A stretch of 64,000 nt of DNA from Eledone cirrhosa (taxonomy: Eukaryota). The stretch lies in the NCBI GenBank assembly GCA_964016885.1, contig OZ024742.1, positions 51,894,001-51,958,000 of the forward strand, in the 5' to 3' direction. Both the position numbers and the translations under genes were made by a program. The notes below the pieces were generated by a model. The model had not been told where the DNA came from. It did not search any database and was given only the letters and a program-made list of their open reading frames with translations. Below, one piece after another: positions 635 through 50,488 of this stretch (position 1 is the first letter of the stretch; each line of letters begins with the position of its first letter).

Positions 635-1426
635 ATACAAATAAAATTATCGAGAATCGAAACTTCGGCCCACGAAATAACTAAAAACATTCTCTCCGAA
701 ATGTGCGGCAAAGTGCTCAATGGTTCGGATGAACCAGAGCTATAACTAACGTTTAATACCAAACACACTGAGACGATGTTTAAACAATCATTCGCACAGC
801 CAAAAAATACGATCAAGTAATTCGGGTCAAACAAATAAAAATATACATGATTGAAACATTTACCCGGACCCCCTGGAAAGGTGGTAAAACCCAGCATTTG
901 GGTTTCTGCGACTCCGAAATCAGGTACCGTCCGCCTACATAAAAAATGTCCGGCTTCTGGTAAGATGATGAATTCGCTTTTTCAACAGGCTTTTAGTTCA
1001 GTAATACAGGGGAAGACTTTTACTGAATCCACGTGGGGATTAGCAAGGGAGGCAACCCCTATATTAGGCGAATGAATTCAGTTGTGTATATTATTGTAAG
1101 AATACAAAATATCACAAATCTAATTAGAGTTCTCAACAGACGGGTTAAAGTTAACATAAGCTATTCATCAGTCAATAGAATCAACTAAAAAATCAATAAA
1201 ATTAACTGATCAATAGGTAGAGTCTGGAGATAAATACAAATAAAATTATCGAGAATCGAAACTTCGGCCCAAGAAATAACGAAAACCAATCTCCGAAATG
1301 TGCGGCAAAGTGCTCAATGGTTCGGATGAACCAGAGCTATAACTAACGTTTAATACCAAACACACTGAGACGATGTTTAAACAATCATTCGCACAGCCAA
1401 AAAATACGATCAAGTAATTCGGGTCA
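635..1426 (-). mobile_element. Terminally redundant non-coding element (~599-bp monomer plus ~193-bp repeat) in (TA)n; retrozyme/PLE-pLTR-like
   Basis: 635-829 is repeated almost exactly at 1234-1426, with (TA)n on both sides. Contains a hammerhead-like motif on the minus strand and no credible ORF. Confidence 0.7.
888..989 (-). ncRNA. Hammerhead-like motif with UUGAAAA (U3-A8) core, helix I degenerate
   Basis: Minus strand: TTGAAAA-A-GCGAATTC...GGAGTCGC-A-GAAACCCA-AATGC-TGGGT-T. Helices II and III form; helix I does not pair well. Confidence 0.5.
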
Positions 1427-2023
1427 TATATATATATATACATATAAGCCAATAAAATAATTACTATTGGACGAATGCTAAGATATCTTCGTTCGGGCGT
1501 CGATATAATTGGCTTTCCCTTCTCCACAACTCGTTGATTTTCTGCTTAAATATTTAGTAGTAGTAGTAGTAGTATGCGGATATTTTGCTCTTGTTTACTT
1601 AAACTAACTAAGACTTCAGCGAAAATTTAATTTTTAAGAGTCGAATACTGTAAATGTGTCGGTTAAATATGCAACCTTTCCGAAAGGAACAAAAATTATA
1701 TTATTATAAACTATATATAATATTGTTAGTATTAATTCGTTTTATGAAGCTAAAATACGTAGAAAATTCTACGTCTTCGCCGTTTTATGCGGTATGGAGG
1801 TTCAATGAAAAATTATATTGTGTGAAGTAATTAACCATTGTTAAGTAACAGAGAAGTATCCATTGTAAAGTATCTGTCAGAAATTTACACCAGCGTTTAT
1901 TCTTTTTGGGTCGTTACGTGAGTGCAGGATCATTGAATGCTACATATTATTGTCAATAAATTGTGAAGAAGAGACATGCTTTTGTTTTCCTTTTGTTGAT
2001 GATTCTTATAAGCAATGTTGTCA

Positions 2024-2081
2024 CTGATGAAGGTTATGGCTTAGCTTGTCTTGCGTTTAATAACCATAACTGAATTGCACT
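2024..2081 (+). ncRNA. Degenerate hammerhead relic
   Basis: CTGATGA-AG-GTTATGG...CCATAAC-T-GAATTGCAC. Core and helix II present, 3' half decayed. Confidence 0.35.
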
Positions 2082-2532
2082 TTCTTATATGTTGGGTTTC
2101 CCTGCAGAGATACCTCTTTTTCACAATATTCTTTATAAATTATATAAATGTCATATTATATTCTTATTAAGAAATATCATAAATTGTCTAGTCTCCATAT
2201 GTATTTATCTTTAGTGAGAGGAAGCTAGCTGACATACCCAATAAAAAATGTTCTGAAGTACAGACGTTCACCTAGATGTGCTAGAAAAATCCACACACAC
2301 ACCAACGCAAACACACAGATTTTTTTAGCCACTTTATAATAATAATAATAATAACAATAATAATCGTATATTATTATGTATGGACATGTATATATATATA
2401 TATATATATATGTATATATATATATATATACATATATATATATATATGTATATATATATATACATGAGTGTGTGTATGCGTATATATATATATATATATA
2501 TATATAAACATGTATATTCATACAAATAGGAA

Positions 2533-2722
2533 AAATAATTGTTTCTTCGTTTGGCACGAGGCCAGCAATCACCCAGTGCATTACTGGTACTTTATTTTAT
2601 CGACCTCATAAGGATGAAAGGCAAAGTTAACCTCGACGGGATTGAACTCAGACTGTAAAGGGACATAACTATGCTGAAAAGCATGGCGTCCGACCCTCTA
2701 CCGATACTGCCAATACACCGCC
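2533..2722 (-). mobile_element. tRNA-derived SINE (same family as 51527-51717)
   Basis: Reverse complement matches GGCGGTGGATTGGCAGTATCG...GAGTTCAA.TCCCG.CGAGGT..ACTTTGCCTTTCATCCTT...GTCGATAAAATAAAGTACCAG. Confidence 0.85.
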
Positions 2723-47064: not shown

Positions 47065-48409
47065 TTCTGTTAGACGATTGAAATTTTTTACACAAAATTT
47101 TTTAAAACAGGTTTTTCACCTCTAGGAGGGGTAAAGATGAGCTGACCCACCGCCTGACAGTTCAGACGGAGGGTCAAGCTACACAATTGTATCAAAATTA
47201 AGTTTGAACTCACAAAATTTCCTCGATAAATTTGAACAAAACTTCTGTGCGAAGTGAATGACATCCACACTGTAGAACAGACGACAGCTAGATTATATAG
47301 ATAATAGATAGATAGATAGATAGATAGATAGATAGATAGATAGATAGATAGAGAGAGAGAGAAATGGAATGTACATAAATATCGTAACATTCAGCAATAT
47401 GAAAATATGTTATTCATTGATTACATTATCTGCTACAGACGGGAATACAGTGTATAGTGATAAATTACTTCTTTTATAACATAAACAATGACATTTTCTC
47501 ATACGTCAGGATCTACTGTCTAATTCGTACGGACAGTAACACAAAATTCTACTTGCTTTATGCGAGTATCAGAAAAGCATTTTCGACGTATTTGTTAAAG
47601 TTACTTATTCGATGATATCAGTGGTTTGAATACAAGAGTGGATGAGACATTTTTGTTATTACAATTATCTTCAGTTATTTATCAAGAGAGGATTAAAATA
47701 TAATTAATATATTAAGGCGTGTGTGTATATACGTATGAGCGGGTTAAATTCCTTACACTCATATTTTATATAAAGACGGTTTCTAATTCATTTAATTAAG
47801 AGCATTGTGTGTATATCCACTCCTTTAAAATGAAATGCTGAAGTAAACTATATCTTTAGCAACATACACACGTAAGCAAACAGTAAAAATATTCTTTACA
47901 ATATCACGACACATATAAAATGATTCGACAAAACACTACTAGGAAAAATGTAATGATCGTGAATTGTGCTCAATAGGGGCCTTTTTTGATAATATTCCAT
48001 AATGACAAATATAATTCTGGACAAGGTCTGGTTCGAAATTACCTGCATAAATTCTCGAAATTATATGAACAATTTCACAATGAATTTACGGAGTCTGATG
48101 TTCTTGATGAGGTGATCCTCTCAATGTCAAATTCAAATTTATCAAGCTATAACACGAAGCATAATTTAAGATGGCATGGCTTGTTTTGGTGATGAACTTT
48201 TCTATGGACTTCTTCAATAGAACTGCTTATATGCTTATCTTCTGGAGAAGTTTATATCTTTTTTGTAGCTTAATGACCGGTATTCCTATGCTCTCAACCG
48301 TTATGCTTCAGGTTTATCAATCACCTCTGAAACCCCACAATTTCTCCCACATCTAACTTTGTGTTATTCCAAACGACCTCTATCGCAAATACTTATCAGT
48401 ATAACTAAC

Positions 48410-48560
48410 ACCGAATTGACAGATCGTTATAGTGTCGGATGGAATGATTTGCTGTATTCGTCCCATGGTTCTGTCCTCCGAGTTCAAATTTCGCGCGGTC
48501 AATTTCGCATTTAATCATTTCAAGGTCGATAATTACTAGTCCGGTAGTGAGACCAATTTT
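48410..48560 (+). mobile_element. Degraded tRNA-derived SINE
   Basis: GAATTGACAGATCGTTA...GAGTTCAAATTTCGCG...AAGGTCGATAA. Confidence 0.55.
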
Positions 48561-49770
48561 TACTCTATATCGCGTCATCACGTCCTCTCTATTGCATACA
48601 CTTTAACTTTCTCTCACTGCCTCTTCTTCTCTGAAAGAGGTCGGCTATGTTCAAATCTGGAGAGATAATGAGATTGGCTCCGTTTACGATGATAAATGTA
48701 TGTAGCAAATGTTTTCCAAAGACTCACTTTCCTGTCGCACACTCATCAGGATCTTCTTCTATCGACGTGATCACTCTGAATTAATTTCAAATATTTTGTT
48801 TCTACAAGTTTACACACGAAGACCCCCATTGGTGCTATTCGAATTAAAATGGAGAGATTATATATTTTGGTTCCATAAAATGGTCGAATATATTTCCTTC
48901 AGTAAGAGAGTAATGTTTGAATCATTTCTCAAGTTCATAGGAAATAAAAGAATCAGAAACCAAGTGTACAGGATTCAAAATAATATGAGCCTTTTTATGA
49001 AGCTATGAATCTGCTAAAATGATGATAGAGAAATATCGATATTTATGTGTATAAACTAAGGTGACATCATATCTTTGCCCTATACCCACGGCATGATACA
49101 TTTTTTTATGATTTTATTTCTTATATATGCACACAAAACCCTGCTTTACAAATTATATATAGACATTTCCTATTCATTCCTCCGTTTTCCCAGGACTACA
49201 ATTTATTAAAGTGCACATAAATTATGTATATATATATATATATAATATTCTAGCTGGACCAGTTAGCACCTAACTGGCTTTCATATGTAAAACTGTAAAA
49301 GCAAAATCTTGGAAATTAATTATATTACCTGTTTGACGGAAATATATCATGGGAATACAATTTTACTACAACATCGTTCATTTATGCAGATAGGTGTAAA
49401 CTGACGTCTAGGGAAAATAAGCTGTCATTATTCAGCCATTTTTTCCACACTTTCATTGTCCGCTTTTATTGTTTAAATAATTTCAGTCATATGACTGCTG
49501 TCACAACTTCGAATAGTCAACAAAGGGAATTTAATCACTTATATAGACCCCGTTGTTTTTTATCTTATTTTTTTCATCGGTCTCGTAAAAGTGAAAAAAC
49601 ATACTCGACCTCGATTCAAATAGATACAAATCATCAATCTGCCTATGAACAAACATACACACACACACACACACATACATACAAACATACATACATATAT
49701 AAATATATACATACATACATACGTACATACAAACATATATTCACACACACACACATACATATATATATAT

Positions 49771-50488
49771 ATACATTATGAAGAGAGAAGAAACATTTAG
49801 ATATAATTAGTAATAAAATGTATCATACCTAAACTGCTCCTAGATTCCTCGACTACGTAGTTTCGTGGCATAAACAAAAACAATACATCAGAAAGATATA
49901 GAGTCCTTGCGAGGTCTGCCGACTTATCAAGAGGATACCTCATTTTACTAGTCTCAAGAACGCGTCTACACGACGTGAGAAAGATTCCCAAAAGGCGGAG
50001 AGGGAGATAGTCACGCGATATAACGGTCGAGAAACAGAGCTAAGCCTCTTATAACCCCGAAGAAAATGCCACGGAGGCGGAGGGGGTATTTATATCGAAG
50101 CCGTAGAAGAGGTGGTGAAGGAGACGAGAAGTATGAGTAATGGAAGCTTTCCAGCAGTCCCCACACTTCAAAGATTGCTCGACCAGAGGGAGTTATTAAC
50201 AATATATTTAGAAACACACAGATACATGCGGACACACACATATACATGAATGCATCCGCACCCAACCGTGAGTTAAGGGTGCCAACTTCACCGATGTTGC
50301 TCAATGAATGACTGGGACAGACCAATCCGGTTGAACCAGACTGAACCAGTATCAGAGTTAAAAATACATTATGAAGAGAGAAGAAACATTTAGATATAAA
50401 TAGTAATAAAATGTATCATACCTAAACTGCTCCTAGATTCCTCGACTACGTAGTTTCGTGGCATAAACAAAACAAAAACAATACATCA
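49771..50488 (-). mobile_element. Terminally redundant hammerhead-bearing element (593-bp monomer plus ~120-bp repeat) in (TA)n
   Basis: 49771-49890 is repeated at 50364-50488, with (TA)n on both flanks. No credible ORF. Confidence 0.85.
49846..49935 (-). ncRNA. Complete type I hammerhead with UUGAUAA (U3-A8) core
   Basis: Minus: TCCTC-TTGATAA-GTCGGCA...TGCCAC-GAAA-CTACGTAG-TC-GAGGA. 5-bp helix I, palindromic ACUACGUAGU helix III, GUC site. Confidence 0.85.

Follow-up and report, generated by a model that had tools for sequence, protein, structure and literature searches.

Predicted hammerhead ribozymes with a U3-A8 core in Penelope-like elements and non-coding repeats of Eledone cirrhosa, and a mismatched C3.A8 stage in one element family

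We have analysed a stretch of 64,000 nucleotides from Eledone cirrhosa (hereafter 'the window'; assembly GCA_964016885.1, contig OZ024742.1, positions 51,894,001 to 51,958,000 of the forward strand), in which an earlier note had pointed to hammerhead ribozymes with the core UUGANAA, that is, with a U3-A8 pair in place of the canonical C3-G8. Hammerheads are found here at the ends of Penelope-like elements (PLEs) and in non-coding repeats; U3-A8 is a minority core among them, and in one PLE family, designated A, a mismatched C3.A8 stage is placed on the trunk of the family tree, between older and younger U3-A8 subfamilies. It is this mismatched stage that is new, while the U3-A8 swap itself was already known.

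U3-A8 hammerheads in the window and in the genome

The window contains hammerheads of four repeat families with a U3-A8 core, as follows.

16564..16711, + strand: family A, stub of the 3' end (pseudo-long terminal repeat, pseudo-LTR) of a PLE assigned by its motifs to the Hydra clade, ending in (TA)n
16603..16696, + strand: type I hammerhead of family A; helix I CCCC/GGGG, core UUGAAAA at 16607-16613, GAAA at 16670-16673
16361..16561, - strand: family A, inverted 5'-truncated copy with a longer tail; core at 16516-16510, 5' strand of helix II deleted
49774..50488, - strand: family B, about 1.2 units of a non-coding repeat of about 591 bp between (TA)n tracts
49846..49935, - strand: type I hammerhead of family B; helix I UCCUC/GAGGA, core UUGAUAA at 49930-49924
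18496..20403, - strand: family C, six tandem 322-bp units with cores (UUGAUAA) at 18710, 19031, 19355, 19677, 19999 and 20321, four of them intact
20406..21139, + strand: family C, inverted arm of 2.3 units, both hammerheads damaged
634..1428, - strand: family D, about 1.3 units of a 603-bp non-coding repeat between (TA)n tracts
862..990, - strand: type I hammerhead of family D; helix I GCCUG/CGGGU, core UUGAAAA at 985-979, GAAA at 906-903

The cores lie where the earlier note had seen them, and all four sites exhibit N3-UGA-N7-N8-A with GAAA and a Watson-Crick 3-8 pair (U3-A8), three helices around the core with helix I open, and an NUH cut site. The repeat units of families A to D and of a fifth U3-A8 family, E, located outside the window, share no sequence except low-complexity DNA, and their helices I-III and flanks differ; together with the copy counts of A, C, D and E given below, this bears out the claim that several unrelated families have this core, and likewise that a CUGANGA-based search would overlook them. 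The note erred in denying a pairing helix I to the site at 985, which has one; a helix III is indeed present there, but the CCCA/UGGG that had been named is a side hairpin, and the hammerhead helix III is CCC/GGG. In the 322-bp array, core, GAAA and NUH are kept in four of eight copies, the other four being damaged.

Matches were counted with a type I descriptor leaving positions 3, 7 and 8 free and allowing an extra base around helix II as well as a loop-less helix III, at a home-made stacking score of -14 or below; it replaced an earlier, looser descriptor of weak discrimination (at score 14, 3 of 150 shuffles equalled the observed count). Twelve matches result for the whole window, nine of them U3-A8, whereas 200 dinucleotide shuffles average 0.125 U3-A8 matches and never exceed 2, so that the predicted excess over shuffled sequence is evident. 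Two of the nine deserve comment: the match at 22749 looks like chance, and that at 16516 belongs to the inverted family A copy with the deletion.

The balance of cores in the genome (assembly 3.0 Gb, (TA)n-rich) was read from an even sample of 80 stretches of 10 kb (800 kb from 17 large contigs, 0.03% of the genome), which yielded 125 matches at the same threshold versus 12.7 in shuffles. C3-G8 accounts for 88 of these (0.2 in shuffles) and U3-A8 for 12 (0.9), followed by U3.G8 with 4 (0.7), A3-U8 with 4 (1.8), C3.A8 with 1 (0.2) and G3-C8 with none, and the remaining ten 3-8 combinations total 16. The 105 Y3/R8 matches group into 40 clusters, and a Watson-Crick 3-8 pair is present in 100 of the 105. 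U3-A8 thus represents 12% of the sampled hammerheads (6-20% when bootstrapped over stretches), and descriptors confined to CUGANGA miss about one in eight hammerheads here. Extrapolated from this 0.03% of the genome, the motifs number about 330,000 for C3-G8 and about 40,000 for U3-A8. A 'radiation' of variant cores peculiar to this genome, as had been proposed, finds no support in the ratio of 88 to 12, nor in the approximately 1,300 published U3-A8 hammerheads of Schistosoma (PMC4209133). The density in the sample (loci L109-L188) is very high, about 125 per Mb or some 370,000 motifs by extrapolation, a total above the 126,247 hammerheads reported for the axolotl.

Copies of individual families were counted by exact patterns with positions 3 and 8 free, the core state being read in the first 100 copies, and reversed-pattern controls (families A and E) gave 0. 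All of the first 100 copies are U3-A8 in family E (11,188 exact copies, most of which are short stubs with a fold-back) and in family C (385 exact copies), as are all 20 exact copies of family D; in the commonest C3-G8 family (16,026 copies), 99 of the first 100 are canonical and one is mismatched. An extra base between positions 9 and 10.1 is present in 53 of the 88 C3-G8 matches of the even sample, and is lacking in 10 of the 12 U3-A8 matches versus 35 of the 88. No family whose core lacks N7, carries an inserted base, or has G3-C8 or A3-U8 was found in the 800 kb; at one sampled locus (L165, C9:30000001-30010000), the two members of an inverted pair belonging to the commonest C3-G8 family both read CUGAGA, without N7.

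A mismatched C3.A8 stage in family A

Among the 5,549 exact-pattern copies of family A, 4,085 have U3-A8 and 1,440 (26%) C3.A8, with 16 U3.G8 and 8 C3-G8 copies making up the rest. The mismatched core reads CUGAGAA and lacks a Watson-Crick 3-8 pair; position 7 is G in 95 of the first 100 C3.A8 copies. Inverted partners within one family A insertion are usually both C3, which indicates that the state came from the template. The expectation that U3-A8 exceeds mismatched cores breaks down in part inside family A, and again inside family F (loci L155 and L325-L328), a small family with a long, AU-rich helix III in which 8 of 18 copies are U3.G8 and 10 are U3-A8. Paired copies of family F agree in their state, and CpG decay could contribute to its split.

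The tree of family A was built from open reading frame (ORF) DNA only, for the 39 copies with an ORF end upstream out of more than 100 fetched, and was rooted on two relatives of 45-51% amino acid identity; a combined tree of ORF and untranslated region was dropped, since the lengths of the latter differ and only 13 copies were kept. From the root, U3-A7 copies (the subfamily of the window's stub, which is the oldest, U3-A7-A8) are followed by U3-C7 copies, then by a ladder of 18 C3-G7 copies, and then by U3 again, with these later U3 copies having the shortest end branches; the core at loci L191 and L247 reads UUGACAA. After removal of one sporadic C3-U7 copy nested among U3 copies, the C3 copies and the young U3 copies together form a clade with support 97/99, and two changes suffice on this tree as compared with at least six in 1,000 shuffles. 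Approximately unbiased (AU) tests on the same reduced set rejected a single clade of C3 copies (p 1.6e-40) and likewise a single clade of U3 copies (p 2e-63), p-values that are not blind because the tested groups were named after earlier trees had been seen. The C3.A8 stage is thereby shown to lie on the trunk of family A.

The predicted ribozyme fold persisted across this stage. Between early and late C3 groups none of 46 core or paired columns changed, compared with 17 of 91 others (p=0.0007), or 10 of 83 others when edge columns are left out (p=0.014). Likewise, 2 of 45 core or paired columns vary among the subfamily majorities (a count that excludes position 3, N7, and G8 in the group selected for G8), both changes being mild, versus 30 of 91 others. 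It is thus likely that the lineage kept multiplying with a mismatched pair and then regained it; during that stage, either the element could do without fast cleavage, or without cleavage altogether, or the register was shifted so that C3 pairs with G7. A literature search did not find a C3.A8 core described in the papers it listed, and the supplements of PMC4209133 and File S2 of PMC8557442 may hold such variants.

Elements and repeats carrying the predicted ribozymes

For family A, a 786-residue frame is located at L237 between hammerheads 3.1 kb apart, and both there and at L238 a single ORF with reverse transcriptase (RT) and C-terminal GIY-YIG domains lies between pseudo-LTRs. The motifs, read by eye, are RWR, DKT, YRDD, CxCX5C, GIY-YIG, CxxC and CxH, without CCHH; matched to the description in PMC8557442, they point to a PLE of the Hydra clade. 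A Pfam scan matched none of eight family A frames, while homologues of the protein carry PF26215 and, in one case, PF01541. With the C-terminal-endonuclease PLEs that make up the Hydra clade (Craig et al. 2021, PMC8557442) family A has in common (i) the single ORF, with an RWK-like motif (RWR here), DKT, the CxCX5C linker, CxxC and CxH, (ii) the lack of CCHH, and (iii) (TA)n insertion and a hammerhead in the pseudo-LTR; it differs in its U3-A8 or C3.A8 core where the passages cited describe canonical hammerheads, and in its repeat length of 3.1 kb. The hammerhead has a stable helix III (CGGC/GCCG) of monomer type, with the cut predicted after 16692. Copies stop 17 nt (58 copies) or 97 nt (47 copies) past the predicted cut and continue into (TA)n, and these two alternative ends are the PLE 'tail' pattern; (TA)n insertion, inverted 5'-truncated copies and the optional tail are all seen. 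Relatives at 36-37% identity (metagenome loci L297-L299) have C3-G8, and a metagenome scan for relatives gave eight loci, six with a hammerhead, all C3-G8, a number that does not suffice for tracing the core through the clade. A search of sequencing runs with family A gave seven, the only RNA run among them containing a share of 0.04 of the words sought and the four that were mapped consisting of contigs.

The hammerhead of family E lies downstream of a 770-residue PLE frame at three loci (L257, L280 and L281; the frame is open at L280:2716-5025, + strand), with the motifs GxKF, DKG, CX4CxxC and CCHH read by eye. These place family E among Neptune/Nematis-type PLEs, two clades that the motifs do not tell apart, and its protein is only 22% identical, in the best stretch, to that of family A. 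A relative of family E (42%) at L113 has C3-G8, its hammerhead being linked by distance only.

Families B, C and D, all of them set in (TA)n, are non-coding tandem repeats with one type I hammerhead per unit, as expected of retrozymes. The unit of C (322 bp) lies inside the range of about 170-400 nt known for these, while the units of B (about 591 bp) and D (603 bp) lie outside it, and we hence call B and D retrozyme-like only. Tandem copies of D occur 603 bp apart elsewhere as well (C2:222084569 and 222085172). In family B, helix III is palindromic and loop-less (CUACGUAG), hence of dimer type, with a predicted cut between 49851 and 49850, and in family C it is near-palindromic and likewise of dimer type; the duplexes amount to -12.9 kcal and -7.3 kcal, respectively. 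Family D has an extra A on both sides of helix II, a monomer-type helix III closing a longer insert and followed by UC, and a predicted cut between 867 and 866; the hammerhead fold is the minimum free energy (MFE) structure in the copy at L083 and lies 6.2 kcal above the MFE in the window copy.

The damaged copies of family C lost NUH, GAAA, A9 or helix pairs, and in its inverted arm TAAA replaces GAAA in the copy at 20636 and the second copy has A9U. When family C is compared with its relatives (seven hand-picked sequences), both sides of a pair changed in 5 of 11 pairs, as opposed to 0-1 in slid controls, part of this covariation being due to a one-base shift of helix II in a single relative; 97% of the paired cells are kept among the seven. 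At L239:5130-5230 (C8:33055130-33055230), a family C fold-back passes directly, without intervening (TA)n, into a Neptune-type PLE ORF truncated at its 5' end, possibly a template switch that names the helper of family C; the element's own hammerhead looks C3-G8. The 4.46-kb tandem spacing of family C at L277 was traced to a local duplication that contains no ORF.

Like B, C and D, the animal non-LTR retrozymes (Cervera and de la Pena 2020, PMC7229834; Li et al. 2026, 10.64898/2026.07.22.740005) consist of non-coding units in tandem, each with a single type I hammerhead, and they have been proposed to be non-autonomous PLE derivatives. The dimer-type helix III of the axolotl is matched by families B and C; the repeats here differ from the retrozymes described in the U3-A8 core and in the longer units of B and D.

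A canonical hammerhead of a separate repeat family, absent from the earlier note's list, was retrieved by the descriptor:

349..404, + strand: C3-G8 hammerhead, core CUGAUGA at 353

C3-G8 and U3-A8 cores hence coexist in the window. A weak, degenerate hammerhead of a canonical family is seen at 16152 (+), and a G8C-mutated one, whose family was found intact at L004, at 14212 (+); a U3.G8 match at 42579 was not accepted as a ribozyme because it lies inside the ORF of a long interspersed nuclear element (LINE). The window further contains three LINE copies in tandem, partly broken and spaced at about 5.8-6.5 kb (29300-47100, -; endonuclease, RT, zf-RVT) including one frame of 1,152 residues at 41704-45162, an RT fragment of another non-LTR retrotransposon (26026-27012, -), and tandem repeats of 112 bp (11860-12187) and 84 bp (45850-46037).

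Mechanism, alternatives and significance

The explanation that we favour, and regard as probable when taken as a whole, follows the PLE copying model of PMC4209133, which we infer to apply to the families described here. By cutting read-through or concatemeric transcripts, the ribozymes are predicted to release RNA of unit length; the PLE RT-endonuclease would prime at (TA)n and start immediately beyond the cut site, which would produce fold-back copies and copies longer than one unit. Insertion at (TA)n with such copies is directly observed, as are the anatomy of the hammerheads, the families and their counts, and the PLE linkage of A and E. Families A and D presumably act as monomers and B, C and E as dimers, and B, C and D would be copied in trans by PLE enzymes. 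Since relatives of A, and probably of E, have C3-G8, at least two origins of U3-A8 are likely, each of which would have proceeded by two transitions via a U3.G8 or C3.A8 intermediate. Among the Watson-Crick swaps, U3-A8 alone can be reached by two transitions, and this may account for its recurrence and for the lack of G3-C8. In the C3.A8 stage, cleavage was probably slow without limiting the copying, with the fold still selected and U3 later restored. This accords with the in vitro behaviour of a purified PLE, whose insertion was unaffected by hammerhead mutants (PMC11167929), and the later return of U3 suggests that cleavage was still valuable enough.

Several points weigh against this explanation. 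The outgroups are distant (branch 0.88), and a root among the C3 copies would mean two independent C3-to-U3 rescues. When all pairwise changes in one hammerhead were scanned, rescue was seen with the G3-C8 swap alone, U3-A8 having low activity (PMC9901934), while Perreault et al. 2011 (PMC3088659) cite activity for U3-A8; the premise of the earlier note that the swap preserves the function of the 3-8 pair is thus valid in some contexts and not in others. The helices could have been conserved because the protein of the element recognises them, and not for catalysis. Trans copying of family C is indicated, weakly, by the single junction at L239, two other neighbours being separated by (TA)n; no PLE ORF could be tied to B in eight stretches of 10 kb or to D in five, and both could be stubs of unseen autonomous elements. 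The descriptor, finally, requires UGA, A9, GAAA and UH and misses other hammerhead variants.

The protein-recognition argument can be carried further: U3-A8 cores might be weak or silent in most families, with the fold kept as a handle for the PLE protein or for the formation of transcript ends. Amplification of C3.A8 to 1,440 copies, the template-borne U3.G8 state of family F, the low activity of swaps other than G3-C8 (PMC9901934), the weak in vitro activity of metazoan PLE minimal hammerheads (PMC4209133) and the dispensability of cleavage in vitro (PMC11167929) are all in line with such a role. We consider it unlikely, though to be reckoned with, in view of the Watson-Crick pair in 100 of 105 Y3/R8 matches, the return of U3 on the trunk of family A, and the fixation of GAAA, UGA, A9 and NUH across unrelated families, which goes beyond the needs of a protein handle. 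A different view of family A is that its core was never broken, C3 pairing with G7 in a register-shifted, N7-less core (CUGA-G-A, with an extra A before helix II) of an active ribozyme. C3 and G7 indeed arise on the same branch, G7 is nearly constant among C3.A8 copies while U3 copies carry all four letters at N7, and the one U7 exception is placed among U3 copies; PLE hammerheads usually have an extra base between 9 and 10.1 (PMC4209133; 53 of 88 C3-G8 matches here), and the inverted pair at L165 provides an N7-less CUGAGA in another family. With a single origin of C3-G7, however, their association may be due to hitch-hiking, and the 800 kb yielded no family with an N7-less core. Perreault et al. 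2011 (PMC3088659) note a contact of the A6-N7 phosphate with U4 and harmful effects of backbone changes at this place, and U3 was later restored. We hence judge the shifted register to be rather improbable, and the same grade applies to its corollary, that long replication as CUGAGAA with shifted C3-G7 cleavage, in an N7-less core of which no description was found, followed by reversion to U3-A8, would have left a natural fossil trace of a ribozyme's passage across a compensatory valley.

A single origin of U3-A8, spread between elements by exchange of ribozyme modules, is still harder to uphold. The PLE machinery does switch templates (as at the chimeric junction of L239), and U3-A8 matches tend to lack the extra base; yet helices I-III and flanks of A-E have no common sequence, A and E belong to distant PLE clades, and intermediates are seen inside two families (A and F), so that we deem it quite doubtful. 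Chance matches in AT-rich DNA, for their part, might be suspected from the abundance of UUGANAA-type (T..A) heptamers (92 in the window), the unremarkable single-strand MFE z-scores of the window hammerheads (-0.8 to -1.6), and an Rfam scan of the window that found no hammerhead at E<=1 and only microsatellite-driven microRNA matches under their cut-offs. This reading is refuted by the even sample, the covariation and the window shuffles, and the fixed place at PLE ends and the thousands of copies, with reversed-pattern controls at 0, leave it practically no room.

When the favoured explanation is compared with known U3-A8 systems, the closest are the Cercyon PLEs of Schistosoma mansoni, with about 1,300 U3-A8 versus about 2,000 canonical minimal hammerheads (Cervera and De la Pena 2014, PMC4209133), where the same core swap is found in the same element class and in many heterogeneous families, mostly as single or inverted copies. 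Here, in contrast, U3-A8 represents about 12% of matches and, by extrapolation, about 40,000 copies, families A and D have a long monomer-type helix III, and family A contains a mismatched-core subfamily of a kind not reported for Schistosoma in the passages cited from PMC4209133. Natural covariation from C3-G8 to U3-A8, as seen here, was described in several hammerheads by Perreault et al. 2011 (PMC3088659); unlike family A, those examples, as given there, are rare and single and come without a lineage history through a mismatch.

On the question whether PLEs need hammerhead cleavage for their spread, one in vitro study saw normal insertion of catalytic mutants. Family A provides successive natural cores in one scaffold (UUGAAAA, CUGAGAA and UUGAGAA, with hundreds to thousands of copies each), and its stable monomer-type helix III would allow cleavage to be compared directly with copy number and age.

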